Source of the DNA: Shigella phage Sf13
Length of the DNA: 64,000 nt
Direction: 5' to 3' (one strand)
Sequence record: MF158040
The number at the start of each line of letters is the position of its first letter. Position 1 is the first letter of the stretch. The notes beneath the pieces are model-generated. The model was given only the letters and a program-made list of their open reading frames with translations, did not search any database and was not told the origin of the DNA. This document shows positions 2,392-13,171 of the stretch, piece by piece. The translations under genes and the position numbers were made by a program.

Positions 2392-3059
2392 TTATGGGAC
2401 ACCTACTGAAGAAGAGTTGGAAGAACTTAGCAGATATGGTTCCCCATCTGAAGAGGAAGAGAAAGAACTCCGAAGAATGGGAAGCAATTACTAAGAAATG
2501 TTTTAAGGATTTGATAGAGATGAAAAAGTTTGAACTTGAGAGTAATTATATCACATTTAGTGTTAAAGATGTAGACAGACACTTTACCAAAGATGAGAAA
2601 AGTGACCTGTATCGTCTTATTCATCGGATGAATTATCGTAGAAATCTAACAGGTAAAGAGCCACTTGAAGGTATCTTTGTCAAGAAGTCTTACCCGTTCT
2701 ATGAAGATACTTTGAAGAAACTCGAGATGTATGTTAAGCAGCAGAACCGTAAAGAGTTCTCTATGATTTCTCTTGGTGGACAACAAATGCTGGTTATGGA
2801 AGATATAAACCCTAAAAGAACTAACAAGGGTGTTTGTATCAAGGTCACAGGTAAAGAAGAATTTGTTGATTATGACATACTCAGACACATTATAGATGGT
2901 TTGGGTGCTGCACTGAACATGAATGAATACCATATTAGTTCACACCCGATTAAGGGTGACCAGATAATGATTCAGGTAAGAGAACGCCATAATGGGTTCA
3001 CACACTTCTTCCAAACTTCTAAAACTTCATTGCAAACTATGCTTAGTGAAGTGATGTAA
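2388..3059 (+). CDS. hypothetical protein
   Basis: 223 aa ORF; first codon appears to be GTG overlapping the upstream stop (ATG alternative at 2394); followed by a terminator. Confidence 0.45.
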   Translation: MIMGHLLKKSWKNLADMVPHLKRKRKNSEEWEAITKKCFKDLIEMKKFELESNYITFSVKDVDRHFTKDEKSDLYRLIHRMNYRRNLTGKEPLEGIFVKKSYPFYEDTLKKLEMYVKQQNRKEFSMISLGGQQMLVMEDINPKRTNKGVCIKVTGKEEFVDYDILRHIIDGLGAALNMNEYHISSHPIKGDQIMIQVRERHNGFTHFFQTSKTSLQTMLSEVM

Positions 3060-3067
3060 AACTATAC

Positions 3068-3092
3068 AGCCCCTTAATTGGGGCTTTTTATT
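3068..3092 (+). terminator. rho-independent terminator
   Basis: AGCCCC-TTAATT-GGGGCT hairpin followed by TTTTTATT, directly after the 2388..3059 stop. Confidence 0.6.
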
Positions 3093-4602
3093 GAGTAAAA
3101 TTTACTAAATTTATAATTTTTATAAAATTTGGGATTCACTCCGTTCATCTTGGGTCACCATGATATGTGATAAAATATCTATACCCTTCTAAACACCCTC
3201 TCTAAGCATCATCTCTATATAGTATTATATAGTATCTATATAGCCTCTTAGCCCCTAAATAGTGCTCTCTATATAGCCCTCTATAAAGCCTTCTAAGCCT
3301 ACCATTAATCAACCCTATACAATCACCTTCCTAACCTCTTCATAGCCCCTTAGAAGCCCCTATACTCATCTTAATCTCTAGGTAAACGATAGTACACTAT
3401 ATAGCAGAATCACTAGGTATTACTAAGCCTCTATATAGACTGTTATATAACACTAAACAGGTATTCCCTTCTAAGGCTTATCCTACAAGGTCTAACACGG
3501 TACTAACAAGGTCTCTTATAAGCCTGTTAATTCCTGTTTTATATAAGATAGTGTATAGATAGTTATTCAGTTCTATAAAATTTTTATAAAATAGACTAGG
3601 TAGTGTTTGTTTAGGAGTCTTTGGAGAATCTGAAAAATATCTACTTAGGGTGTATATCTGCTTGGTAGCCCTTAACAGCCCTGTAACATCCCCTTTGCAG
3701 TTTATTAAAATATCATTAACAATTTCTTAACAACTCTCTCAAGCTCTTAACATCTCTTCAGAGTTCTTAACAATCCCTTAACAGAACTAACAAGAGCTTA
3801 ACAAGTCTGTAACGTTGCTTACAAGAGTCTAACAAGTTGCTTATAAGTTGCTAAATAGTTAAATCTTAAGAGTTATTTTGTTAAGATAATTAACAAGGTG
3901 CTAACAAGTTCTAAACCTTTTTAACAGTCTCTTAACATGGTCACTATCTCTTGGTCTATAGTTCCCTATGTTTCTTAGTGATTCTCTATAAAGCCCTCTT
4001 AAAAGCTCTCTATAGCTCTGTATAGCCTCTTCTAAGCTTCTCCCTAGTAACTACACCCCAACTACCTGTATAGCTCTTTATAGGGCTTTCTAGGGGCTTA
4101 TACAGGTACTTCAAAGAGTCTAACAAGCTTTTAACATACCTCTAACAAGGATTTAACAAGGGGCTAACAAGTCTCTAATAAGCATAACTATGTAGCATTT
4201 GTTAAGATTTTGTTAAGAGAATGTAAAGGGGGCTAACTTTTACGTTACTTTTAAGGTTCTTTTACGTTACTTTGAAGACTCCATAACATACTTTAAAGCT
4301 ATTATCAAGCCCCTTTGTAACCATTCACAAGATTCTATCCAGCTTATAAGCTTATACCCTTATAAGATTCTTTTAAGGCTCTAGAAAGCTCTATAAAGGG
4401 CTTTTAAGAGTAGGTTAATATGATTGCTTAAGATGAGATGATAAGCCCGTATAGAGCGTTATAGAGCGTTTTAGGGATTGCCCTTCCCTTTCGGGTTATG
4501 GGCTTATATTTAAGTTGATTTGATAAGAGGATATAGAGTAAGCTATAGAGTTATTATTCTAAATGTATGGGATAGATTCTAGGAAGGTTTCTTTATAGAC
4601 GT
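3093..4602. other. 1.5 kb ORF-free region with short-motif arrays
   Basis: No ORF of 60 aa or more on either strand; + strand visibly G-poor; about 10 copies of (C/T)TAACAAG between 3490 and 4180; many CTATA(A/T)AG(C) motifs; tandem GTTATAGAGCG at about 4455-4480; bounded by inward-facing terminators. Confidence 0.5.
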
Positions 4603-4623
4603 AAAAAGCCCCATCTAAGGGGC
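4603..4623 (-). terminator. rho-independent terminator
   Basis: On the minus strand GCCCC-TTAGAT-GGGGC then TTTTT, just downstream of the 4666..4923 stop; a second GGGGC/GCCCC hairpin lies at about 4637-4651. Confidence 0.55.
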
Positions 4624-4665
4624 TGTAAAGGTGTCTGGGGCTATTTGCCCCGTTGCGGCGACTTG

Positions 4666-4923
4666 TTAGTTATTGAAGCCGTCAACTTCATAGTAAAGCG
4701 TGATAAGAGAATCACCCCAATAGTAAGAGGATTTGCCATCCTTTAAGACTTCTTGTTTTACTTCTTTCCAGAACCACTCAGATTGATTGTAGTCCTGAAT
4801 AGTTGCTTTTAGACACATATCAACCATGCCAAAAACATCGCCAGTTCCAACCATATCAAATTTAACATCTAATACATGGAAGCCAAAATTGTTAACAGTT
4901 GCGTGGATAGTAGCCATTTTCAT
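4666..4923 (-). CDS. hypothetical protein
   Basis: 85 aa ORF preceded by a type B cassette; GGAGA lies only 2 nt from the first ATG, so the second ATG at 4917 may be the real start. Confidence 0.5.
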   Translation of the reverse strand: MKMATIHATVNNFGFHVLDVKFDMVGTGDVFGMVDMCLKATIQDYNQSEWFWKEVKQEVLKDGKSSYYWGDSLITLYYEVDGFNN

Positions 4924-4983
4924 ATTCTCCAGTTTAGGAATTTTGTTTTAGTGGGGAAGTCTCCCTCCCCGTTGAAAGTAATA
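4924..4983 (-). promoter_or_regulatory. cassette type B (GC hairpin + conserved RBS)
   Basis: Minus sense: GGGGAGGGAGACTTCCCC hairpin then AAATTCCTAAACTGGAGAAT before ATG. Confidence 0.5.
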
Positions 4984-5247
4984 TTAATTCATTGCTGCAT
5001 AAGTTGCAAGTCTTTTTTCATTGTATTTTGTAAGAATCTCACAAGATAAAACGTCATACTTTGCAACGGCTTCAGATTTAGTTAAACCGAAATGGCTTAC
5101 AATTTCACCATTCATGAATCCGACTACTTCATAAGATTCTGCGATGATTTCACCGTTGAACCAATCACTTTCAATACGTTTGCAAAGTTGGATATCTTCT
5201 TTGTCAGTACCGATTTGTAACAGGATAGTGATTTCTTGATTATTCAT
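4984..5247 (-). CDS. hypothetical protein
   Basis: 87 aa ORF; ATG preceded by cassette with CTGGAGA. Confidence 0.5.
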   Translation of the reverse strand: MNNQEITILLQIGTDKEDIQLCKRIESDWFNGEIIAESYEVVGFMNGEIVSHFGLTKSEAVAKYDVLSCEILTKYNEKRLATYAAMN

Positions 5248-5307
5248 TTTCTAGTCTCCAGTTTAGGATTGTTGGGGAAGGTCATTCCCTCCCCGTTGAT
5301 AAGTACT
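5248..5307 (-). promoter_or_regulatory. cassette type B
   Basis: GGGAA-GGTCA-TTCCC hairpin plus CCTAAACTGGAGA motif. Confidence 0.5.
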
Positions 5308-5835
5308 TTATAGATTTGTGATGATTTCGTCAAGGGAATTTTCTAAGTTTTTTAAAGATTGTTCGTAAAGTCTAATTCCCCTATTTAATGCTTCCCCTAA
5401 CGTAATTTTAAAACTAGTTGTTGGGTAGTCACTTGTAAAGATGTTTTCCACTTCATAGAGTGGGTATTGTTGGTTACCCGTTCCCATAGCATACATGCCT
5501 GTATAGTGGATTGCAATAAAAAGATTATGGGACTTAATAGAGCGCTCATAAGCCATTTTAAAGCGGTTTAACTCGTTTTTAGTTGCCTTAATAGCCATTT
5601 CGTGAATTTCTGCGACTATAGCCATATAATCATTCAGAATGAGAGAAATAGCCCCCATAAAGTTGTTGGCTGTTACCGCTTTTACATTTGGTCGGTGTAC
5701 ATAAAACTTCTTATCTTCCCCTTTTGTGATAACTGCAAAAACTTTACTCTTTAAGGTAAATTCCCAAGTGTCTTTACAAGGCTTGCTCATCACTTCACGG
5801 CTACGGATTGCATTAACAGCATTAAACTTATTCAT
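5308..5835 (-). CDS. hypothetical protein
   Basis: 175 aa ORF; ATG start preceded by cassette. Confidence 0.5.
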   Translation of the reverse strand: MNKFNAVNAIRSREVMSKPCKDTWEFTLKSKVFAVITKGEDKKFYVHRPNVKAVTANNFMGAISLILNDYMAIVAEIHEMAIKATKNELNRFKMAYERSIKSHNLFIAIHYTGMYAMGTGNQQYPLYEVENIFTSDYPTTSFKITLGEALNRGIRLYEQSLKNLENSLDEIITNL

Positions 5836-5900
5836 TCTAGATTCTCCAGTTTAGGAATTTTGTTTTAGTGGGGAAGTCTCCCTCCCCGTTGATGAATACT
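5836..5900 (-). promoter_or_regulatory. cassette type B
   Basis: Near-identical to the copy at 4924..4983. Confidence 0.5.
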
Positions 5901-6041
5901 TTACTTGTTTTGATTCTGCATTGCAAGTAGTTTTTTATCAAAAACTTTATCTGAGATTTCACCAATGATGAGTACTGCTAATGGCAACACAACAGAAACA
6001 ATCATACCACAAAGGATAGGGTTTTTAATGATATCTAACAT
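5901..6041 (-). CDS. small hydrophobic protein (46 aa, below ORF-track cutoff)
   Basis: Read by eye: MLDIIKNPILCGMIVSVVLPLAVLIIGEISDKVFDKKLLAMQNQNK; preceded by CTGGAGAAT; its 3' end and downstream flank repeat those of 9352..9699; coordinates +/-1. Confidence 0.3.
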   Translation of the reverse strand: MLDIIKNPILCGMIVSVVLPLAVLIIGEISDKVFDKKLLAMQNQNK

Positions 6042-6237
6042 TTAGTGATTCTCCAGTTTAGGAAGTTGCCTTTTGAAGATACTATATAGATATGATTAAA
6101 CCTTTGCAAGTACTTTTTACGCTTATCTATAAAGAATCTATTAAGTTAATCCCTTTTAGATAAACCCCCTCGAACAAAGTTACACTTGTCAAGGGGCATT
6201 GTCAATAGTTTTTCAAAAGATTTTTATAAGTTGTTGA

Positions 6238-6579
6238 TTAGCTTATAAAGATTTTTTCTGGCTTAACATAGGTTAATGACTGTTTTTTAAGCAAATCAGA
6301 CCAAATGAGCGCGGCAATGTGACTATATCCCTTTTCTCTTAACTCCTGCATAGCTGATTTGCGAGTTTCGAAACGTGTAGCGTAGTATTCAGTGTTAAGG
6401 GTAGTTTTATTCCCTTCATTGTCAACATGTACAATCTGCATCACTTGAAAGGGGCTTACATCTTCTCCCCTGTTCCATTGCTCAAAGTACTTGAGACACT
6501 GCATAGGTTTCATTTTGTCGTTAACTTGGGTAGACCATGACGAATTTTCTTTATCGGTGATAATTGTTACATAGGCCAT
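6238..6579 (-). CDS. hypothetical protein
   Basis: 113 aa ORF; ATG start; type A cassette upstream. Confidence 0.5.
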   Translation of the reverse strand: MAYVTIITDKENSSWSTQVNDKMKPMQCLKYFEQWNRGEDVSPFQVMQIVHVDNEGNKTTLNTEYYATRFETRKSAMQELREKGYSHIAALIWSDLLKKQSLTYVKPEKIFIS

Positions 6580-6664
6580 TTTCAGATTCTCCAGTTTAGG
6601 ATTGTTGGTAAAGCTCTTTATCTGGGGCTTAAGATACTAGCTTTTAAACCCCATGTAAAGCACT
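6580..6664 (-). promoter_or_regulatory. cassette type A (promoter-like + GGGG/CCCC clamp + RBS)
   Basis: Minus sense: TTTACA-N17-TATCTT between GGGG and CCCC, then AGCTTTACCAACAATCCTAAACTGGAGAATCTGAA-ATG. Confidence 0.5.
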
Positions 6665-6862
6665 TTAATAAATTCTATCCATCAGATTATTCACGGCCAT
6701 AATTGCATTATCTTTGAAGTGTGGATGACTGCTATTCTGTGAGAATAGTATTTCTCCATTGTATACTATTTTTAGGTCTATCTTTGAACCTTCCATGTTA
6801 AGGTTACACTCTACACCTTTTAAACACCACAAGGTAGAAAGTTTTTGCATCAGTGATAACAT
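6665..6862 (-). CDS. hypothetical protein
   Basis: 65 aa ORF; ATG start after cassette. Confidence 0.45.
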   Translation of the reverse strand: MLSLMQKLSTLWCLKGVECNLNMEGSKIDLKIVYNGEILFSQNSSHPHFKDNAIMAVNNLMDRIY

Positions 6863-6953
6863 TTTAGATTCTCCAGTTTAGGATTGTTGGTAAAGCTCTT
6901 TATCTGGGGCTTATCTTATCTAACTATAAACCCCATGTAAAGTACTTTATTAG
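6863..6953 (-). promoter_or_regulatory. cassette type A
   Basis: TTTACA-N17-TAAGAT, GGGG/CCCC, CTGGAGA RBS. Confidence 0.5.
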
Positions 6954-7175
6954 TTATTTGTAGTAATAATATGTAAACTCATTTATCAGGCTTCCATCCT
7001 CATCATTATACTGCTTATGACTAGCCAGATAACCGCCATTAGCTAGAATTTCATCAATCAACTTTTTAGCGTCATCGTTGGGAATCCTAACAGGTTTACT
7101 AAACGGCTGTAAATAGGTACGACGAACATTTGAGAATTTAAAATCAATGGTTTTTACGTTAAGAACTTGCAACAT
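6954..7175 (-). CDS. hypothetical protein
   Basis: ORF track 6954..7253 begins with TTG inside the cassette; the in-frame ATG at 7175 (MLQVLNV...) follows GGAGA at the same spacing as other array genes. Confidence 0.45.
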   Translation of the reverse strand: MLQVLNVKTIDFKFSNVRRTYLQPFSKPVRIPNDDAKKLIDEILANGGYLASHKQYNDEDGSLINEFTYYYYK

Positions 7176-7253
7176 TTTTTGAATCTCCAGTTTAGGATTG
7201 TTGGGATGTTTCCCGTTGATGAATACTTTACTTTCTTGCGTTTTCAGTGTCAA
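7176..7253 (-). promoter_or_regulatory. cassette type B
   Basis: GGGA-TGTT-TCCC hairpin, CGTTGATGAATACTTTA module, CTGGAGA RBS. Confidence 0.45.
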
Positions 7254-7484
7254 CTACTTTTCTATAAGAATCTCATATTCACCATTCACACTATCAAAGT
7301 AAATACCTTCATCATCTTCTGATTTATAGTAGCACTGTATATCATCCGATGCTGGGTAGTCTTGCCTTGCTATCTGACAGGCAACAATAGCATTATTTTC
7401 GCTACCTGTAAACTCTTCTAAACCTTTAAAGTTGCATTGTGAACCATTGCAGATAGATAGAATAAGATAGATTGTTGTAAGCAT
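7254..7484 (-). CDS. hypothetical Cys-containing protein
   Basis: 76 aa ORF; ATG start; no cassette upstream, only a GC hairpin (about 7505-7525). Confidence 0.45.
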   Translation of the reverse strand: MLTTIYLILSICNGSQCNFKGLEEFTGSENNAIVACQIARQDYPASDDIQCYYKSEDDEGIYFDSVNGEYEILIEK

Positions 7485-7547
7485 CTTTTAAGCCTCTTGT
7501 AAGCCCCTGTGCGGGGCTTTTCTAGTGAACTGGTGTGATTCTATGGT

Positions 7548-8105
7548 TTATGCTGTTAAGTCGTTTATAACCGTTTCTGTTACGTTGCATTGCATGGTGT
7601 CAAAGATATCACAATATACATTGCTCATCCCATCACTACGTTGGACTATTTCTGCAATGTTGCGTAGTTCGTCTGGTACATATCCTAAATTTCTATTGTT
7701 TAGGTTAGGGACAAAGAAAGGCGCATACATAGCATTAAATTCAGTTGTGTAAACCTTTTTAATCCATTCTTTATCGAAATATTCTGTAAAGCTTGCTACG
7801 TCGCTCATGTTCTCACAGCTCCAGTCATCTTGTAAATCATCTTCTGGAATATCCAGTTCCAAGATAACAAGCTTTTGTGACTTCATTTGATAGGCTGCTG
7901 TAATGCTTGCGCTATCAAGCGCGTTTCTAATACCTTCATCTGTGATTTGTTCGTCATCCAGATTCTCTACATCATAGAACTTGTTAACAGGGTAGACGTA
8001 AAAACATCCATCCATATCAGAGCAATTCCAAGCTCCTGATGGTTTATCACCGCCATTGATAAGGTTTACAAAGTTTTCTTGTGTAGTACCATGAAAGCAT
8101 TTCAT
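7548..8105 (-). CDS. hypothetical acidic protein
   Basis: 185 aa ORF, markedly Asp/Glu-rich; ATG start after type A cassette. Confidence 0.5.
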   Translation of the reverse strand: MKCFHGTTQENFVNLINGGDKPSGAWNCSDMDGCFYVYPVNKFYDVENLDDEQITDEGIRNALDSASITAAYQMKSQKLVILELDIPEDDLQDDWSCENMSDVASFTEYFDKEWIKKVYTTEFNAMYAPFFVPNLNNRNLGYVPDELRNIAEIVQRSDGMSNVYCDIFDTMQCNVTETVINDLTA

Positions 8106-8189
8106 TTTAGATTCTCCAGTTTAGGATTGTTGGTAAAGCTCTTTATCTGGGGCTTATCTTATCTAACTATAAACCCCATGTAAAGCACT
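8106..8189 (-). promoter_or_regulatory. cassette type A
   Basis: TTTACA-TGGGGTTTATAGTTAGA-TAAGAT, CCCC, CTGGAGAATCTAAA-ATG. Confidence 0.5.
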
Positions 8190-8438
8190 TTATTTAGTTT
8201 TCTTTGTAAAGATTAGTTTAACGGCAACAGTTGGTAACTCTTCAATACTTGTGAACAAAGTCACTTTTTGAGTCTTGACATTATAGCCATACTTTGAACC
8301 ATAAGCCGTAAAACGGTTTACAATGTAACTGTAAGTTTTTGCAGTGTTATCTGGCATATGATATAAAAACGGCTTGCCAAGGTTATCAAGTTGTGTTAAG
8401 AGTCGGCATGTATCAGGGATATTCAACATATTAAACAT
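8190..8438 (-). CDS. hypothetical protein
   Basis: 82 aa ORF; ATG start after cassette. Confidence 0.45.
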   Translation of the reverse strand: MFNMLNIPDTCRLLTQLDNLGKPFLYHMPDNTAKTYSYIVNRFTAYGSKYGYNVKTQKVTLFTSIEELPTVAVKLIFTKKTK

Positions 8439-8523
8439 TTTCAGATTCTCCAGTTTAGGATTGTTGGGGCTTCTAACTTGCCCCGTTGATGAGTACTCTA
8501 CTACTATGCTTTTGCAATGTCAA
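8439..8523 (-). promoter_or_regulatory. cassette type B
   Basis: GGGGC-AAGTTAGAA-GCCCC hairpin plus RBS motif. Confidence 0.5.
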
Positions 8524-8931
8524 TCAAATCTCTGAATAAATTGCATCGCAGATTTCACGGAAAACTTCAACCGGTAAGTTACGCTGTAACCATGTTGCAA
8601 AGAAATCAGCAATTGCAAAGTTTGCATCAAAATCAACACATAGCCACACTTTAACAGCAAATCTAAACATTTTCAAGTCAAGTTCTTTATTCATTACTTT
8701 TGACTTTGACAGCATTTCTTTCATCTCATACTGAGCACCGTCAATTATAGCTCCTGCTGCTACATCTTGCAAGGATTCTTTAAGCTGTTTTGTGTCTACT
8801 ACTGCGCCCTGAATTTTACCGATGATATTATGTAGTGTTTCGTCTGGTGCTGCTGATGTTACAATGTTGATGCGGTTAATGGTCAAACGTGCTTTCAAAA
8901 TTGCAACTTCTTTGTGATTAACATTAGTCAT
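8524..8931 (-). CDS. hypothetical protein
   Basis: 135 aa ORF; ATG start after cassette. Confidence 0.5.
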   Translation of the reverse strand: MTNVNHKEVAILKARLTINRINIVTSAAPDETLHNIIGKIQGAVVDTKQLKESLQDVAAGAIIDGAQYEMKEMLSKSKVMNKELDLKMFRFAVKVWLCVDFDANFAIADFFATWLQRNLPVEVFREICDAIYSEI

Positions 8932-9020
8932 TTTCTAGTCTCCAGTTTAGGTTAGTTTTAGATAAATCTCTTTATCTGGGGCTATCTTAGCAACTTGATA
9001 ACCCCATGTAAAGCAATTTA
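8932..9020 (-). promoter_or_regulatory. cassette type A (variant)
   Basis: TTTACA-N17-TAAGAT; RBS variant CTGGAGACTAGAAA. Confidence 0.45.
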
Positions 9021-9293
9021 TTAGACTAAATACAATTTTTTACCACTAACAATAATGTAACTTACACCGCTATTACTGTAAACATCTTGATAAATTCTGC
9101 GTAACTTTCCAAGGTATCGAACTTTCCAAGATGTAGGAATTTTCTTTCCATATCCTGTGGCGGTTTTTTGTAGACCTGCTACCTGCCAATCTAATAGGTG
9201 CTGTTCTGCTCTTAACTCTTCAAAGTTTAATACACCGTCTACATAGTGTTTTAAAGTTACGTTCAAAGTTCGACCGTCATTAGTAGTATACAT
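9021..9293 (-). CDS. hypothetical protein
   Basis: 90 aa ORF; ATG start after cassette. Confidence 0.45.
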   Translation of the reverse strand: MYTTNDGRTLNVTLKHYVDGVLNFEELRAEQHLLDWQVAGLQKTATGYGKKIPTSWKVRYLGKLRRIYQDVYSNSGVSYIIVSGKKLYLV

Positions 9294-9351
9294 TTTAGAT
9301 TCTCCAGTTTAGGATTGTTGGGACTTCTATCTTGCCCCGTTGATGAATACT
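9294..9351 (-). promoter_or_regulatory. cassette type B
   Basis: GGGAC...GCCCC hairpin, GTTGATGAATACTTTA module, RBS. Confidence 0.45.
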
Positions 9352-9699
9352 TTACTTGTTTTGATTCTGCATTGCAAGCTCTTTTTTATTAATTTCTTGC
9401 GCTATCACAATATAATAATCTTTCAGGTTTATATCTTGAATTGACTCTAGAAGTATGTCATAATCACTGATTAATTTAAAATCACCGTCTAGAATGTTAT
9501 CAATCCGGTATGTCTCTGCTTTAAATCGAAAGCTCATCTCTAAACGTTTCAATTGTTCTAAGTTCAAACGCTCTAAAAAGCCCCGTACAAGGTTTATTTT
9601 TAAATCCCTTGTAAGTGCCTTATTAGCTATACTGTGCGCTTGTAAGGCTTTATAGAGCGCCACAATAGAGATAAAAATTGCAACGTATGTGATTAACAT
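9352..9699 (-). CDS. hypothetical membrane-anchored protein
   Basis: 115 aa ORF with N-terminal hydrophobic segment; ATG overlaps stop of 9693..9989; C-terminus ...LAMQNQNK shared with the 46 aa ORF at 5901..6041. Confidence 0.45.
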   Translation of the reverse strand: MLITYVAIFISIVALYKALQAHSIANKALTRDLKINLVRGFLERLNLEQLKRLEMSFRFKAETYRIDNILDGDFKLISDYDILLESIQDINLKDYYIVIAQEINKKELAMQNQNK

Positions 9700-9989
9700 T
9701 TGTTTTTACCTTTGTGGAATAGTTTACCAGTGTGACTAATTTCATATGAATCAACCATATCTCTAGTGGTCTTAATCGATGACTTATTAGTGTTATCATA
9801 GATATCAACCTGAAGCAATGGTTTTTTGTATTCTTTACAAAAGTTCCATACACAAATTATTACTTCCTTTTTGTTAATCTTTCCATGATACCACTCTACG
9901 GCTTCAGATGTACGGCGCATGGATTCAATGAATTGGATATTACTTAATAGCTGGCTTAATTTAGTTCTAACGTTTGCGGCAATAAACAT
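9693..9989 (-). CDS. hypothetical protein
   Basis: 98 aa ORF; ATG start after cassette. Confidence 0.45.
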   Translation of the reverse strand: MFIAANVRTKLSQLLSNIQFIESMRRTSEAVEWYHGKINKKEVIICVWNFCKEYKKPLLQVDIYDNTNKSSIKTTRDMVDSYEISHTGKLFHKGKNKC

Positions 9990-10073
9990 TTTAGATTCTC
10001 CAGTTTAGGATTGTTTGTAAAGCTCTTTATCTGGGGCTATCTTATCAACTTGATAACCCCATGTAAAGCACTT
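9990..10073 (-). promoter_or_regulatory. cassette type A
   Basis: TTTACA-N17-TAAGAT, GGGG/CCCC, RBS. Confidence 0.5.
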
Positions 10074-10586
10074 TTAGATATTAAAGATATTCATAACAGA
10101 ATCTTTCAAGGCTTCTAAACGTTCCATTACTTCAGATTCTCCATCGGAGTTCGACACTTCCTCTTCTAATCGTGAATCTAAATCTTCACCGTCAAGATAG
10201 CACCAATCGAAGCCATAAGCAAGAGAAAAGCTATTTAATACTGTATTACCTTCTTTATCTTCTACCTTTGCAAATAGCACGTAGCTGTTAGCCTCTAAAT
10301 CTCTTTGTAATTCATCTTGTAAGCTCTTGTAAGCCTCTATAGATGGATTTTCGCGGCCTTGTTTAGCATAATCACTCATCAATTGTGAAAGGCTGTAATG
10401 CTGTGGAATTGCATATTTGTACCCGTTACGCTCTGGATTTTTAAGTTTGATTGTAACCCCGCCTTTGTGCTCATCGGTAAACTTCCAATTTTCCACACAA
10501 TGGGATGCTTCACAAATATTAACAGCTTCATAGATGATAGTGAATTTTTCTTTTTGAACTTCAAAGGTAGCTTCAACGTATGACAT
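10074..10586 (-). CDS. hypothetical protein (acidic C-terminal half)
   Basis: 170 aa ORF; ATG start after cassette. Confidence 0.5.
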   Translation of the reverse strand: MSYVEATFEVQKEKFTIIYEAVNICEASHCVENWKFTDEHKGGVTIKLKNPERNGYKYAIPQHYSLSQLMSDYAKQGRENPSIEAYKSLQDELQRDLEANSYVLFAKVEDKEGNTVLNSFSLAYGFDWCYLDGEDLDSRLEEEVSNSDGESEVMERLEALKDSVMNIFNI

Positions 10587-10678
10587 ATTAAGATTCTCCA
10601 GTTTAGGACTATTGGTTAGTAAAGCTCTTTATCTGGGGCTTATACTAGCAACTTATAAACCCCATGTAAAGCACTTTA
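10587..10678 (-). promoter_or_regulatory. cassette type A
   Basis: TTTACA-N17-TAGTAT, GGGG/CCCC, RBS. Confidence 0.5.
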
Positions 10679-10936
10679 TCAGATTAAATTGTCAGTTAAT
10701 GATAAGTGCATTTTATAACCTTTCTTCGTGTAGACGTTAGTTCTACCGATTGCTTTTACACCTTTGAAAAGGTCATAGGAACTACGTTTTAAAGTAATTT
10801 CCTTATCACATTTCACGCCCCATCTTACAGCAGATTCTTTTCCGTTGTCAACCACTTTACCATTTAATTTTTTAGCAGTTGCGCGAGCGTCATCACGAGA
10901 TTTTGCAGATACAATGATGTTTTTGATAGTAGCCAT
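10679..10936 (-). CDS. hypothetical basic protein
   Basis: 85 aa ORF; ATG start after cassette. Confidence 0.45.
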   Translation of the reverse strand: MATIKNIIVSAKSRDDARATAKKLNGKVVDNGKESAVRWGVKCDKEITLKRSSYDLFKGVKAIGRTNVYTKKGYKMHLSLTDNLI

Positions 10937-11027
10937 TTTTGATACTCCAGTTTAGGTTATTGTTTGGTAAAGCTCTTTATCTGGGGCTTATCTTATCTAA
11001 CTATAAACCCCATGTAAAGGACTTTAT
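10937..11027 (-). promoter_or_regulatory. cassette type A
   Basis: Same module; RBS variant CTGGAGTATCAAAA. Confidence 0.45.
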
Positions 11028-11408
11028 TTAGTTAATTTTGAAAACTGTAACGTAGCCATCACTACCAATAGTTTGAGATACTCCAGCTTTCTCTATATCA
11101 TACCCCATTTTATCAAGATGGTACATTGCATCTTCATACCCATATTTACCGCCTTGATAGCGTCTTTTTTCGCATCGTATCACAGTTTTACCACGTCCTG
11201 CAATAGCATTTATGATAGCTTTTTCACCGGATAATGTACCGTCAAGCATAGTAGCTTTGTAGTGGTTAATACGGTTACCATTAACATCATACTTAAAATT
11301 GTAAGCGTGAACAACAATTATTTTTCCTTTGAAGTTTTCTTTCATAGTTTCCTCTAAGATACTACGAAAGTTTTCTTTGTTGATAAATTTAGGCGCACGA
11401 TATTTCAT
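11028..11408 (-). CDS. hypothetical protein
   Basis: 126 aa ORF; ATG start after cassette. Confidence 0.5.
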   Translation of the reverse strand: MKYRAPKFINKENFRSILEETMKENFKGKIIVVHAYNFKYDVNGNRINHYKATMLDGTLSGEKAIINAIAGRGKTVIRCEKRRYQGGKYGYEDAMYHLDKMGYDIEKAGVSQTIGSDGYVTVFKIN

Positions 11409-11492
11409 TTTAGATTCTCCAGTTTAGGATTGTTGGTAAAGCTCTTTATCTGGGGCTTAAGATACTAGATTTTAAACCCCATGTAAAGCACT
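11409..11492 (-). promoter_or_regulatory. cassette type A
   Basis: TTTACA-N17-TATCTT, GGGG/CCCC, RBS. Confidence 0.5.
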
Positions 11493-11654
11493 TTATGCAA
11501 TAATTTTTATAAAATATTTCATGGTTATTTTGTCGCCATTGGTAAGGGCTATACAATCATTACCCATAGCAGACTTATAGAGATAGAAGACTTTACCAAT
11601 TTTTGGGTATCCGTCTAAATCTTTGTATTGTATTACATCGCTTTCTTTAATCAT
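11493..11654 (-). CDS. hypothetical small protein
   Basis: ORF track 11493..11732 begins with TTG and overlaps the upstream gene by 67 nt; in-frame ATG at 11654 removes the overlap. Start uncertain. Confidence 0.3.
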   Translation of the reverse strand: MIKESDVIQYKDLDGYPKIGKVFYLYKSAMGNDCIALTNGDKITMKYFIKIIA

Positions 11655-11665
11655 TGTCAAGCCTT

Positions 11666-11872
11666 TTAAACGTTGTAATAATAAATTGCTGTATGCCTTG
11701 TAAACTGTCTTGTATGAGTTGTCAAGTAACAATCTGAACTGATTGACGTATCAACATATTCATCAAAATCCTTTTCTGAGATACGTTGCCAAACATCACA
11801 AATTAGCATATAGAAACGACGTTTATTTGTTTTGTTGTTGTCAACAATCATTAACTCACGTTGATATAACAT
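11666..11872 (-). CDS. hypothetical protein
   Basis: 68 aa ORF; ATG start directly after cassette at 11873. Confidence 0.4.
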   Translation of the reverse strand: MLYQRELMIVDNNKTNKRRFYMLICDVWQRISEKDFDEYVDTSISSDCYLTTHTRQFTRHTAIYYYNV

Positions 11873-11940
11873 TTTAGATTCTCCAGTTTAGGATTGTTGG
11901 GATGTTTCCCGTTGATGCAAATACTATAAGACTGGATTTA
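11873..11940 (-). promoter_or_regulatory. cassette type B (first of array)
   Basis: GGGA-TGTT-TCCC hairpin plus CTGGAGAATCTAAA RBS; a possible promoter TTGACT-N17-TAGTAT lies just upstream (about 11922-11955). Confidence 0.4.
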
Positions 11941-12124
11941 TGAAGTCAACAAAATTTTTAAAAATATTTTCGATGCTTCGTGAATAGAACGCACGTATGC
12001 GGATACACTAAAACAGGAATTTAGTCAAGAATTATTTTTGAGTTCTCTACAAATTTTTCTCTTGACTTTTGGGAGGAAGGGGATTAAGAGGGGATGGTGG
12101 GGCTGGTTTCCTACAGCTACCTAC

Positions 12125-12320
12125 CTGCACAATTTGAAAATGAATTTTCCCTTTGGAGTCCAACTGCATCTGCACAGATTGAAAATGAAAAAGCTCTTTG
12201 GAGTCTAAACCTGCACAAATTTGAAATGAATTTTCCCTTTGGAGTTCAGCTAAAGAAATCTGTCCAGAGTTCTATGCAACTATACCTGCACAAATTTAAA
12301 ATGAAAAAGCCCTCCTTACC
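12125..12320. repeat. four direct repeats of about 36-40 bp
   Basis: CTGCACA(A/G)ATT(T)GAAAATGAA-(TTTTCC|AAAAGC)-CTTTGGAGT starting near 12125, 12170, 12211 and 12286; the last merges into the terminator hairpin. Confidence 0.55.
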
Positions 12321-12352
12321 TGAGATTTTTAAACTCAAACTTTGGAGGGCTT
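12304..12352 (-). terminator. putative terminator (long loop)
   Basis: AGCCCTCC ... GGAGGGCT inverted repeat with a T-run after it on the minus strand, downstream of the macrodomain gene stop. Confidence 0.35.
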
Positions 12353-12376
12353 GTCTATGTCTAGCTAGGTGACTTA

Positions 12377-13171
12377 TTAGTTACGTGCTTCAACATAGCT
12401 TACGTTTTCATGTGTGATATAATCTTCTGCAAACTCTTCTGTAGTAGCATTGATATATACACTTGCATCATCGCCAAACGTTACCGCTCTGTGGTGGTGG
12501 CCTTGTAACGGGTGGGTAACTTGAGCGTTACTTCGATTGTACTTATCAACCGGAGGGTAACTGGTGTGTACCTTGCCATTACGCTTCACCTTGAGGGTAA
12601 CTTTATCCTTGCCTACCACAGCAACACCATCAAAGTATTGAGGCTCACTGAAGTTCTCCCAACCAGTAACAGGACTAGTCAACTGACTGTACATCTTATC
12701 TTCATAGACATACATATATACGTCAACATCTTTCATGGTCTGATTAATAATGGACAGCACAGCCATACTATCAAGACCACCAATCCCTGCACCAATCATA
12801 GGGAGTCCAACCTTCTTAAGCTGGTTTACTTTACAGTAGTTGTTAAGACGCTGTAAAGCTGCTTCTAAGGCATTGTATCGTGCATTTTTTCCAGTGATAA
12901 CCTGAGTATAAAGGTTAGCAATTCGACCCTGCTTCAAACGTGCTACAGAGATGTTACCAAGCATTAGATTCTTAGGGTTATGGTTTTCACCACCTACTGT
13001 AGCATAAACTTCAGCGTCAGTTTCATAAGCTTTTGGGTAGCGTTTAGCAATTGTTGCTGCGATACCTGCACCCATCAAGTTCATGCAGTTACAACCGTGA
13101 CCAATGATATCAAACTTCTTACCATCAAAGTCTTTAAAGATATCACCTTTAATAATTTTTACGATACCCAT
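12377..13171 (-). CDS. macrodomain protein (TARG1/DarG-like ADP-ribosyl hydrolase fold) with C-terminal extension
   Basis: KGDIF...DIIGHGCNCMNLMGAGIAATIAKRYP and LPMIGAGIGGLD resemble the TARG1-type macrodomain (GDLF...HCISEDCRMGAGIA...PRIGCGLD); about 110 aa unrecognised C-terminal region with a GHHH motif. ORF track start is 13228; ATG at 13171 (MGIVKIIKGD...) avoids a 56 nt overlap with the upstream gene. Start uncertain. Confidence 0.55.
   Translation of the reverse strand: MGIVKIIKGDIFKDFDGKKFDIIGHGCNCMNLMGAGIAATIAKRYPKAYETDAEVYATVGGENHNPKNLMLGNISVARLKQGRIANLYTQVITGKNARYNALEAALQRLNNYCKVNQLKKVGLPMIGAGIGGLDSMAVLSIINQTMKDVDVYMYVYEDKMYSQLTSPVTGWENFSEPQYFDGVAVVGKDKVTLKVKRNGKVHTSYPPVDKYNRSNAQVTHPLQGHHHRAVTFGDDASVYINATTEEFAEDYITHENVSYVEARN

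Follow-up and report, generated by a model that had tools for sequence, protein, structure and literature searches.

The small-gene block and its cassettes

The window, by which we mean the whole stretch of 64,000 nucleotides analysed here, belongs to a Mooglevirus (Ounavirinae, Felix O1-type) myophage and shows 98% identity to Escherichia phage vB_EcoM_3HA14. It encodes a family A polymerase (PF00476 match), as the first-pass annotation had proposed. A small-gene block of approximately 7 kb occupies the minus strand at 4921-11949, where 19 genes are punctuated by 16 cassettes. The block is bounded by terminators, one upstream after a macro-domain gene and one downstream at 4607-4624, the latter (AGCCCCTTAGATGGGGCT followed by TTTTT, minus strand) being the sole canonical intrinsic terminator of the block. 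The features are as follows, in the order of the coding strand.

4666..11872, minus strand: 19 small genes (46-185 aa); Pfam family in 0 of the 19 block proteins, PHROGs of unknown function for all 19
11870..11949, minus strand: B1 (type B), TTGACT-N17-TAGTAT, CATCAAC, hairpin GGGAAACATCCC, leader box, ATG of 68-aa gene
11406..11496, minus strand: A1 (type A), stop TAA, TTTACA-N17-TATCTT, extended hairpin (fold -26 kcal/mol, z -4.2), leader box, ATG of 126-aa gene
10934..11027, minus strand: A2 (type A), -10 TAAGAT; precedes 85-aa gene
10584..10679, minus strand: A3 (type A), -10 TAGTAT; precedes 170-aa gene
9987..10076, minus strand: A4 (type A, 28-nt clamp variant GGGGTTATC/GATAGCCCC); precedes 98-aa gene
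9291..9377, minus strand: B2 (type B), TTGCAA-N17-TAAAGT, predicted transcription start ~9341, hairpin GGGGCAAGATAGAAGTCCC; precedes 90-aa gene
8929..9021, minus strand: A5 (type A), compensated outer stem AUAAAU/AUUUAU; precedes 135-aa gene
8436..8523, minus strand: B3 (type B), TTGACA-N17-TAGAGT, hairpin GGGGCAAGTTAGAAGCCCC; precedes 82-aa gene
8103..8193, minus strand: A6 (type A); precedes 185-aa gene
7173..7253, minus strand: B4 (type B), TTGACA-N17-TAAAGT, hairpin GGGAAACATCCC; precedes 73-aa gene
6860..6950, minus strand: A7 (type A), predicted transcription start ~6905; precedes 65-aa gene
6577..6668, minus strand: A8 (type A); precedes 113-aa gene
6039..6109, minus strand: hairpin-less cassette, TTGCAA-N17-TATAGT and leader box; precedes 46-aa gene
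5833..5926, minus strand: B5 (type B), TTGCAA-N17-TAAAGT, hairpin GGGGAGGGAGACTTCCCC with GAGA loop; precedes 175-aa gene
5245..5333, minus strand: B6 (type B), TTGACG-N17-TAAAGT, hairpin GGGGAGGGAATGACCTTCCCC; precedes 87-aa gene
4921..5009, minus strand: B7 (type B), TTGCAA-N17-TAATAT, hairpin GGGGAGGGAGACTTCCCC; precedes the last (85-aa) gene
4607..4658, minus strand: block end, type-B-like hairpin (CAAC GGGGCAAATAGCCCC), AGACACCTTTAC and terminator; kept in all relatives

The sequence CCTAAACTGGAG occurs in 16 exact copies, every one of them on the minus strand and within 4927-11892, whereas shuffled sequence yields 0.31 on average and 2 at most, and each copy is followed by an ATG after 5-10 nt. 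Both the array of cassettes at this locus and the translation-initiation box said to be shared by them are therefore borne out. The count of about 15 copies given in the first-pass annotation becomes 16, namely eight of type A, seven of type B and one that lacks a hairpin. The cassettes are near-identical, measure 70-96 bp and carry a GC-clamped hairpin in 15 of 16 cases. The earlier statement that almost every gene is preceded by a cassette holds for 16 of the 19 genes, the three exceptions being those for the 53-aa (start 11654), 115-aa (start 9699) and 76-aa (start 7484) proteins. The 115-aa gene overlaps the preceding gene, and the 76-aa gene has a GC hairpin of its own. In the complete 3HA14 genome all 16 boxes are confined to this block, and across phage records the type A cassette is found at 1478 places in 286 records, among phages of Escherichia, Salmonella, Shigella, Citrobacter and Erwinia.

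Predicted promoters and hairpins within the cassettes

Two hexamers lie 17 nt apart in all 16 cassettes. The pattern TTTACA-N17-TANNNT is found 12 times in the window (1.7 expected), eight of these being the type A cassettes. Among 41 unique TTTACA-anchored type A sequences from 13 genomes, -12T, -11A and -7T are kept in 38, the remaining three having an 18-nt spacer, while the loop positions beside these bases are free to vary. In a MAFFT alignment the three columns are invariant, as are the unpaired C and A of TTTACA. In the 28- and 29-nt clamp variants the -10 is shifted relative to the 3' arm, so that the 17-nt spacing is kept. The first-pass annotation had noted that type A loops differ while the spacing and the TAnnnT remain, and had placed a sigma70-type promoter within the hairpin; the former is confirmed, and the fixed T, A and T at 17-18 nt from TTTACA argue for the latter. 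The -10 hexamers (TAAGAT, TATCTT, TAGTAT, TAAAGT) share no more than 3-4 of 6 positions with TATAAT. A generic scan for promoters in the region gave 43 matches against 30 expected, and consensus matching by itself is thus weak. A literature search for a transcriptome study of Ounavirinae phages found none.

Type B had been described as a short hairpin plus the GTTGATGAATACTTTA module only. This proved wrong, since all seven copies also carry a predicted promoter: on the coding strand GTTGATGAATACTTTA corresponds to TAAAGT plus ATTCATCAAC, that is, the -10 hexamer and the putative transcript start, and in each of the seven the -10 is preceded, at exactly 17 nt, by a TTG(A/C)(C/A)N hexamer. All fit TTGMMD-N17-TANNNT-N10-GGG (0.03 matches expected), the GC hairpin starting exactly 10 nt past the -10 hexamer, and this geometry is identical across six different spacer sequences. 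The type B -35 sits within the last codons of the upstream gene; in B2 the -35 to -10 stretch codes for the C-terminal LAMQNQNK and stop of the 115-aa gene, and in B5 it again codes for LAMQNQNK and a stop.

The GGGG/CCCC clamp previously assigned to type A is present, but it is part of a longer structure, an interrupted hairpin of 21-22 bp (1x1 and 2x2 internal loops) situated right at the upstream stop codon, in which upstream UAAAGU.CUUUA pairs with downstream UAAAG.GCUUUA. Folding is achieved by all copies (84/84 of type A, 73/73 of type B), with energies of -25 to -27 kcal/mol and z-scores of -2.3 to -4.4 in type A, and RNAalifold recovers the extended stem independently. In the type A stem 97.5% of cells are paired; sliding the partners by 1-3 columns lowers this to 30-61%. 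At pair 8-59, 29 sequences have GC, 11 UA, 1 AU and 2 GU, positions 7-9 of the clamp alternate between TA, AT and CG, and in Erwinia phage SunLIRen GGTG/CACC replaces GGGG/CCCC, although this covariation amounts to few independent events among related copies, with both-sided change in one outer-stem pair only. The G.U pairs of type A exist in the sense orientation only, and sense RNA is the more stable strand in 29 of 30 unique hairpins. The middle stem, which includes part of the -35, shows zero variation, so its conservation is assignable neither to pairing nor to the promoter in particular. Folding and covariation establish the type A hairpin as a structure, whose role we infer below. No U-tract follows the hairpin in any cassette, and efficient intrinsic termination at the cassettes is thus unlikely.

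Could type A be RNA punctuation only, in one long early transcript? The elements would then act as RNase III-type processing sites, attenuators or stabilisers of 3' ends, comparable to the early region of T7, and the hexamers would be incidental or a by-product of the stem. The position of so long a stem at the upstream stop codon agrees with this, as do the RNAalifold structure, the compensatory pair, the sense-specific G.U pairs and the inclusion of part of the -35 in the invariant stem; the early RNase III sites of T7 are also of comparable size. We nevertheless consider it unlikely, given that the unpaired invariant bases (CA of TTTACA; loop T, A and T at 17-18 nt) coincide exactly with sigma70 contacts, that the 28-nt clamp variant moves the -10 relative to the stem but not to the -35, and that type B cassettes in the same array appear to be clear promoters without a long stem. 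Moreover, punctuation and promoter roles are compatible and not mutually exclusive.

Leader box, gene shuffling and a working model

The 26-nt leader box, restricted to the block, is conserved far beyond what a Shine-Dalgarno (SD) sequence needs. The leader is the G-poor CCAACAATCCTAAACTGGAGAATCTAAA-ATG and holds a weak mini-hairpin (-1 to -4.5 kcal/mol) in which UCC pairs with the GGA of the SD, a pairing that the variant boxes also retain, as UCCU/AGGA in Felix O1 and as CCUU/AAGG in Erwinia phages. Such features might point to a site for a trans-acting factor (an RNA, or a protein of phage or host origin) through which all 16 messages would be switched jointly in their translation or stability, with promoter and hairpin secondary; the models would be the start-associated sequences (SAS) of cluster K mycobacteriophages, to which the Mordin announcement already likened the box, or the GGAG targets of T4 RegB. 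This scenario strikes us as rather doubtful, if the least so of the alternatives weighed here: the analysis yielded no candidate for the factor, the mini-hairpin is weak, and unlike cassettes recombine at the box, so gene conversion could keep it uniform. It would in any case be an addition to the expression-unit explanation and not a replacement.

Recombination at the cassettes is apparent from comparison of the block with 12 related genomes. Cassettes account for 19% of the block but hold 31 of the 38 indel breakpoints (binomial probability 1e-14), though some of these may have been pulled there, as BLAST extends alignments through conserved sequence beside diverged genes. The coincidence of cassette boundaries with indel breakpoints, which the first-pass annotation had suggested examining, is thus found. 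In the 11 pure insertions or deletions all 22 ends lie in cassettes, and each of the 11 leaves a single intact hybrid cassette. Two type A cassettes overlap at their junction by approximately 90 bp, unlike cassettes by 19-31 bp, which is the leader box they share; at the Sf14 junction A1 supplies the 5' part and A4 the 3' part, with the crossover past the hairpin. As read from these junctions, gene gain and loss in the relatives is shown to take place at cassettes via homologous recombination.

A further scenario has the inverted repeats acting as DNA, either as operators for a dimeric phage repressor of early promoters or as targets of a dedicated integron-like recombinase. The type A repeat does cover both -10 and spacer, where operators are classically found; the gene-plus-hairpin layout recalls integron cassettes; and the authors describing PeSL (promoter-early stem-loop) elements speculated that GGGG...CCCC is a protein target (PMC2839356). 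We hold this to be very improbable. The T.G pairs of the stem are A.C mismatches on the other strand, favouring sense RNA over symmetric DNA recognition; type B hairpins range from 12 to 22 nt, so half-site spacing is not constant; crossover points vary (past the hairpin in Sf14, at the leader box for unlike cassettes), which fits general homologous recombination and not a fixed site; and the annotation of the complete 3HA14 genome lists neither an integrase nor a recombinase.

We therefore favour, with fair confidence, the view that every cassette works as an expression unit in its own right, serving one small gene that is probably early, and, being near-identical to the others, doubles as portable homology for gene shuffling. 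Host sigma70 RNA polymerase would start within every cassette, the promoter being TTTACA-N17-TAnnnT for type A cassettes and TTGnnn-N17-TAnnnT for those of type B, with predicted 5' ends 6-9 nt downstream of TAnnnT. A 5'-terminal stem-loop protects E. coli mRNA from 5'-end-dependent decay, and the type B hairpin, 2-3 nt from the predicted 5' end, would be suited to such protection. In type A the predicted start lies just beyond the hairpin, which should therefore form only in read-through transcripts from upstream; there, at the upstream stop codon, it may serve as an attenuator, protect 3' ends or be processed by a double-strand RNase, which would separate neighbouring messages. The conserved leader would give every gene the same ribosome-binding context. 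Recombination between cassettes, as the genome comparison shows, removes, adds and exchanges gene-plus-cassette modules, with one hybrid cassette per junction.

Regarding timing, RT-PCR in Felix O1 gave maximal signal at 5 min for ORFs 13, 16, 20, 21 and 22, and ORFs 16, 20, 21 and 22 are homologues of block genes. So are ORFs 17, 19 and 23, which peak at 25 min, and several structural genes peak at 5 min, making these data a noisy guide. The sequence, together with this weak RT-PCR evidence, suggests that the block genes are probably early; that they serve in host takeover or anti-defence is a guess.

Comparison with known systems

The ompA leader, with its stabilising 5'-terminal stem-loop, parallels type B, in which a GC hairpin lies 2-3 nt from the predicted 5' end. 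The RNase III hairpins between T7 early genes, like type A, have an interrupted stem of approximately 20 bp between cistrons; in contrast to type A with its predicted promoter, the T7 sites are not known to contain one internally.

Parts of the array have been reported before. The Felix O1 paper lists a 57-bp repeat, CTTTACATGGGGCTTAAAAGTCTGTAAAGTAAGCCCCAGATAAAGAGCTTTACCACT, and a 39-bp repeat, TTGACACTGG...ACATCAAC, which correspond to type A and type B, respectively, and omits both from its own promoter list (Whichard et al. 2010, PMC3185647). The Mordin announcement annotated the leader repeat as an SAS-like 26-mer (Guan et al. 2015, PMC4611695). The direct repeats and the SAS-like 26-mer were thus already known, while neither paper put forward a reading in terms of promoters, hairpins or recombination, or one that spans the subfamily. 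The SAS and ESAS of cluster K mycobacteriophages (Pope et al. 2011, PMC3203893) resemble the box in being a conserved asymmetric motif with an SD core a few nt before the ATG, in a single orientation and only before non-structural genes, with an inverted repeat immediately upstream at about half of the sites. However, the sequence differs (GGGATAGGAGCCC in cluster K, CCTAAACTGGAG here), as do host and phage group; ESAS repeats lack compensatory changes and were taken to be DNA-binding sites, whereas the stems here covary; and SAS have not been described as promoters or recombination junctions.

The resemblance to the PeSL elements of T4-type phages, raised in the first-pass annotation, extends to each point of their published definition. 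Known from RB49/phi1, PST and nt-1 (Arbiol et al. 2010, PMC2839356; Comeau et al. 2014, PMC4122927), these combine a promoter of sigma70 type with a GGGG...CCCC stem-loop that lies between the hexamers, overlaps them or follows directly after the -10; they further have the upstream stop codon in the AT-rich 5' part and an SD and ATG at the 3' end, and they cluster before ORFans (PMC2839356). Both systems consist of approximately 100-bp intergenic modules before ORFans in a plastic region, with a sigma70-like promoter (by sequence, in our case), an AT-rich upstream part holding the upstream stop codon, and an SD and ATG at the 3' end. The GGGG...CCCC stem-loop has G.T pairs in both, its location between or over the hexamers matching type A and that just downstream of the -10 matching type B, and in both the indels between related phages are bounded by cassettes and leave chimeric ones. 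In contrast, our array forms one 7-kb block and not several hyperplastic regions, its type A has a much longer interrupted stem enclosing the whole promoter, the 26-nt leader box is common to all copies, and several type B copies encode the upstream protein's tail between -35 and -10. Promoter and terminator activity and mini-circles were demonstrated experimentally for the PeSL of RB49, whereas our evidence comes from sequence. Given that the phage lineage here is unrelated (Ounavirinae, with a family A polymerase), the array is an analogue and not a demonstrated homologue of PeSL, and from its anatomy it is best read as the Ounavirinae counterpart of these cassettes.

Organization of the cassette array and its predicted promoters

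The region 4600-12400 of the window matches 245 phage records, all of them Felix O1-type myophages (infecting Escherichia, Salmonella, Shigella and Citrobacter), and shares 98% identity with Escherichia phage vB_EcoM_3HA14 (3HA14) along its entire length. The nearest relatives of the window are classified in the Ounavirinae, genus Mooglevirus, and its 899-aa polymerase matches family A (PF00476), as the first-pass annotation had proposed. The minus-strand block of 19 small genes is punctuated by 16 cassettes, each with a conserved ribosome-binding leader box just 5' of the ATG. The exact sequence CCTAAACTGGAG is found 16 times on this strand between 4927 and 11892, against a mean of 0.31 and a maximum of 2 in dinucleotide-preserving shuffles, and every copy has a conserved module on its 5' side and an ATG on its 3' side. 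Eight cassettes (type A) are built as (A)TAAAGTGCTTTACA-T-GGGG..loop..CCCC-AGATAAAGAGCTTTACC-AACAATCCTAAACTGGAGAATCTAAA-ATG, and seven (type B) as TTGnnn-N17-TAnnnT-(A/T)TTCATCAAC-GC hairpin-leader-ATG. The remaining one has no hairpin:

6039-6109, minus strand: hairpin-less cassette, TTGCAA-N17-TATAGT plus leader

In most copies the stop codon of the upstream gene is the TAA of (A)TAAAGT, a hexamer that in type B is the -10 element, and the 3' end of every cassette consists of GGAG, 5-10 nt and ATG. Cassettes serve 16 of the 19 genes in the block; among the other three, one lies 11 nt after its neighbour, one overlaps its neighbour and one has its own GC hairpin (7485-7547). The junction of this last, a 76-aa gene, carries the hairpin AAGCCCCGCACAGGGGCTT and a different Shine-Dalgarno (SD) sequence (GAGG) in place of the box. 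A long intergenic stretch 5' of the hairpin-less cassette (6110-6237), kept in relatives, contains a hairpin of reversed polarity, CCCCTTGACAAG...TTGTTCGAGGGGG, and a pair of overlapping TTGACA boxes. In the complete 3HA14 genome all boxes (16/16) and all type A and type B heads are confined to this same block.

The spacing between the -35 and -10 hexamers is 17 nt in all 16 cassettes, and the type A promoter pattern has 12 matches where 1.7 are expected. A generic promoter and terminator scan gave 43 promoter-like matches against 30 expected, which is not informative alone, and missed the long type A stem. Cassettes were collected from the window and from Mordin, 3HA14, Maleficent, Sf18, Sf14, KPS64, Moogle, Silverhawkium, SUSP2, ESh22, phiSUSP1 and Felix O1, yielding 84 type A and 73 type B copies. 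When the 41 unique type A sequences are aligned on TTTACA, the T, A and T at -12, -11 and -7 are kept in 38, the remaining three having an 18-nt spacer; in a MAFFT alignment of the 13 genomes these columns are invariant. The three middle positions of the -10 hexamer and the adjoining loop bases vary freely, and the C and A closing TTTACA are invariant though unpaired in the predicted structure. In clamp variants of 28 and 29 nt the -10 is displaced by one base relative to the 3' arm while the 17-nt spacing is kept; spacing and pairing are thus separate constraints. By eye, no -35 hexamer was found 17 nt 5' of the opening TAAAGT in the inspected type A copies, which argues for use of the internal TTTACA. 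In a noisy Felix O1 RT-PCR data set, the homologous ORFs 16, 20, 21 and 22 are among the genes peaking at 5 min.

Type B had been described as a hairpin plus the GTTGATGAATACTTTA module (TAAAGT-ATTCATCAAC on the coding strand). Both elements stand, but the promoter-less reading of this type does not, since the pattern TTGMMD-N17-TANNNT-N10-GGG fits seven of the seven copies with 0.03 matches expected. The spacers comprise six distinct sequences, and the constraint thus bears on the hexamers and their distances rather than on the spacer. The final codons of the upstream gene contain the -35 in five copies, four of which have a -10 of TAAAGT whose TAA serves as the stop codon. Two unrelated proteins of 115 and 46 aa both end in LAMQNQNK, a common tail which therefore derives from this overlap of -35 and stop codon with coding sequence. 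An identical 44-nt stretch, CTTGCAATGCAGAATCAAAACAAGTAAAGTATTCATCAACGGGG, terminates two unrelated genes (9352-9377 and 5901-5926), where the sequence from -35 to -10 is at the same time coding; cassette exchange at the LAMQNQNK-encoding copies would swap protein tails.

Stem-loops and predicted transcripts

A stem-loop is present in 15 of the 16 cassettes. RNA folding gives the same structure for every type A cassette, namely an outer stem of 6 bp (UAAAGU/GCUUUA), a 1x1 mismatch, a middle stem of 5 bp (CUUUA/UAAAG), a 2x2 internal loop and a 10-bp clamp, with energies of -25 to -27 kcal/mol (z -2.3 to -4.4 versus shuffles). The GGGG/CCCC clamp noted in the first pass is thus confirmed, but as part of a hairpin whose folds extend to the middle and outer stems. 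Given this fold, AGATAAAGAGCTTTAC, 3' of the clamp, represents the 3' arm, and the 5' arm holds the stop codon and most of TTTACA. All collected copies fold (84 type A, 73 type B). Across 45 distinct sequences, the 19-pair structure is satisfied by standard pairs in 97.5% of cells, a share that drops to 30-61% once the partner columns are shifted by 1-3, and the extended stem is predicted independently by RNAalifold. Pair 8-59, for example, is GC in 29 cases, UA in 11, AU in one and GU in two. Clamp positions 7-9 switch among TA, AT and CG with complementarity retained, and at position 5, 25 sequences have T.G, three C-G and one T-A. In Erwinia phage SunLIRen (Kolesnikvirus), GGTG...CACC replaces GGGG...CCCC and TTTACA-N17-TAGTAT is unbroken. 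This covariation is modest and comes from related copies; it supports the predicted structure, short of proof.

A symmetric DNA site, such as a cruciform or an operator, is disfavoured because the G.U pairs (G.T in DNA) occur in the sense orientation only and, of 30 unique type A hairpins, 29 are more stable as the sense than as the antisense strand. We also rejected intrinsic termination at the cassette hairpins: no U-run follows any of them, the subsequent sequence being AGAUAAAG in type A and AACAAUCC or ACUAAAAC in type B, and the sole canonical intrinsic terminator of the block on the minus strand is at 4607-4624, the block end. A search of 2500-13000 with the covariance models of Rfam 15 (E<=1) returned a single chance-level match (mir-287, E=0.4).

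Initiation 7-8 nt past the -10 would place the 5' end of type B messages 2-3 nt ahead of the hairpin. A stem-loop close to the 5' end stabilises mRNA in E. coli, and the type B hairpin would have this arrangement. Type A messages would start at the A directly after CCCC and would thus be devoid of the hairpin. Only RNA reading through from the upstream gene would fold into the long type A stem, at the end of that gene, where it could act as an attenuator, protect the 3' end or be processed as an RNase III-type site. We put forward, as a speculative scenario with the odds against it, that type A is doubly coded: a sigma70 promoter as DNA and, as a hairpin of 21-22 bp in read-through RNA, a processing or stability signal. 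Together with the conserved leader, whose SD lies within a small conserved hairpin, such a portable unit would set the 5' end, the 3' end and the translation of each early message, and would form an integrase-free, subfamily-wide exchange platform for host-takeover genes. The doubly coded unit may have been retained from Escherichia to Erwinia phages. In the latter the promoter-hairpin part is kept and the leader differs (CCCTTAyAAAGGAAT).

The leader box of all 16 cassettes (e.g., 6871-6885) can itself form a weak mini-hairpin (UCC-UAAACU-GGA, -2.7 kcal/mol), in which an anti-SD-like CCU pairs with the SD core. The pairing is kept in variant boxes, as UCCU/AGGA in type B of Felix O1 and as CCUU/AAGG in the Erwinia phages. 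TCC is found 3-7 nt 5' of GGAG at 14 of 17 sites in the block, compared with 4 of 40 in the rest of the window, although the copies in the block are not mutually independent.

Gene exchange at the cassettes

With a single type A cassette as query we retrieved 1478 places in 286 of 50,697 phage records, nearly all from phages of Escherichia, Salmonella, Shigella, Citrobacter or Erwinia and exclusively in Ounavirinae-type records, which indicates an old and subfamily-wide design. Collinear BLAST chains against the 12 relatives delineate approximately 19 distinct rearrangements inside the block, whose gene content differs in 11 of the 12. Cassettes make up 19% of the block (1417/7360 bp) and contain 31 of the 38 breakpoints (binomial probability 1e-14), with the gap in KPS64 (5969-6862) and the low-identity ends of the Felix O1 chains scored as outside cassettes. 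The first-pass annotation had proposed, as a check, comparing indel breakpoints in relatives with cassette boundaries, and the two do coincide. In the 11 pure insertions or deletions both ends fall in cassettes (22/22). Where one type A cassette meets another, 89-97 bp of the relative's sequence belongs to both flanks, an overlap of one whole cassette; at junctions of unlike cassettes the overlap is 19-31 bp, corresponding to the shared leader box. In Sf14, which lacks three genes (10074-11406), the junction is a hybrid of the 5' part of A1 with its own loop and the 3' part of A4, the crossover lying within CCCCAGATAAAGAGCTTTAC. The crossover positions differ between events, consistent with homologous recombination rather than a site-specific enzyme. 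An integron-like mechanism is likewise disfavoured by the variable crossovers, and no integrase is annotated in the complete 3HA14 genome.

Two further loci deserve mention. Citrobacter phage Mordin has, at about 7223-7337, a tandem pair of type A promoter-hairpin heads that enclose no gene (..GAGCTTTACCAA|CTTTACATGGGG..), where the sister phage Maleficent has a single head; the pair resembles a scar left by recombination through the short GCTTTAC repeat flanking the clamp. Within 10572-10679, cassette A3 differs from its 3HA14 counterpart in loop class (TTTATAAGTTGCTAGTATAAG versus TTTATAGTTAGATAATATAAG), as do the first codons of the 170-aa gene (ATGTCATACG versus ATGAATTTTG). Since the genomes are otherwise 98% identical, the sequences suggest a recent exchange ending inside the cassette.

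Additional repeats flank the block. The stretch of about 1.5 kb at 3060-4606 has no ORF of at least 40 aa, has an unannotated counterpart in 3HA14 and Moogle, and gives no Rfam match. Convergent terminator hairpins, each an inverted copy of the other (3062-3090 and 4602-4630; 90% complementary), delimit this stretch, which is dense in short repeats, many 10-12 bp apart (a CTCTATA(A/T)AGCC family with 12 copies, a TAACAAG family and CTTTTA(A/C)G). The pattern resembles an array of protein-binding sites, which might be an origin, a site of packaging or a region at the genome end. Between the macro-domain gene terminator and the first cassette (12123-12326), a repeat of about 43 nt is present in four copies (...CTCCAAAGGGAAAATTCATTTTCAAATTGTGCAGGT on the minus strand), overlapping a plus-strand ORF (12094-12372) annotated as hypothetical in relatives. 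Its core, TTTTTCATTTTnAATTTGTGCA, also occurs four times at the same place in SunLIRen (about 3500-3700) and is thus conserved across genera.

Felix O1-type phages are widely used in Salmonella typing, biocontrol and therapy, and, by the account of the Felix O1 genome paper (PMC3185647), neither their early promoters nor the temporal control of their transcription is known. The cassettes provide 16 candidate early promoters per genome and explain where differences in Ounavirinae gene content arise. They also delimit 19 small proteins of unknown function: no Pfam family scored above threshold for any of them and PHROGs returned only families of unknown function, in agreement with the initial description of these genes (19/19). 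Being probably made early in infection, these proteins are a natural place to seek host-takeover or anti-defence functions, for which they are reasonable candidates. For phage engineering, the cassettes could serve as a toolkit of safe insertion points, since each brings its own promoter and ribosome-binding site.

Comparison with known systems

The likeness to the promoter-early stem-loop (PeSL) cassettes of T4-type phages, noted in the first pass, holds point by point against the published description (PMC2839356). The shared traits are sigma70-like hexamers 16-18 nt apart in an intergenic repeat; a stable hairpin, typically GGGG...CCCC including G.T pairs, lying between or over the hexamers or just past the -10 (both positions occur here); an upstream stop in the AT-rich 5' part with SD and ATG at the 3' end; placement before ORFans in a variable region; and indels or replacements bounded by cassettes that leave chimeric cassettes. 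PeSL elements belong to T4-type (Tevenvirinae) genomes, whereas the window groups with Mooglevirus and sequence matches are confined to Ounavirinae-type records; the cassettes are thus a PeSL analogue rather than a member by descent. Start-associated sequences (SAS/ESAS) of cluster K mycobacteriophages resemble them in layout alone (an asymmetric motif 3-8 nt before the start, in one orientation, at non-structural genes only), as the 13-bp consensus GGGATAGGAGCCC differs from the box. The modelled type A stem, with 6+5+10 bp, has the layout of T7 early RNase III sites, approximately two turns of interrupted dsRNA between cistrons. Integron attC sites involve a dedicated tyrosine integrase and a fixed crossover, neither of which is seen in the complete relative genome or at the compared junctions.

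Parts of this array have been recorded before. The Felix O1 paper lists 57-bp and 39-bp repeats merely as repeats, absent from its predicted promoters (PMC3185647), and the Mordin announcement notes the 26-mer as SAS-like, of unknown role (PMC4611695). Our literature search found neither a transcription-start study of Ounavirinae nor a PeSL description in the group. What the present analysis adds is the extended stem of type A, the promoters of type B, their overlap with coding sequence and the study of the junctions. That the PeSL design recurs in a second myophage lineage, unrelated to the first, suggests that it is a general way of handling plug-and-play accessory genes rather than a peculiarity of T4.
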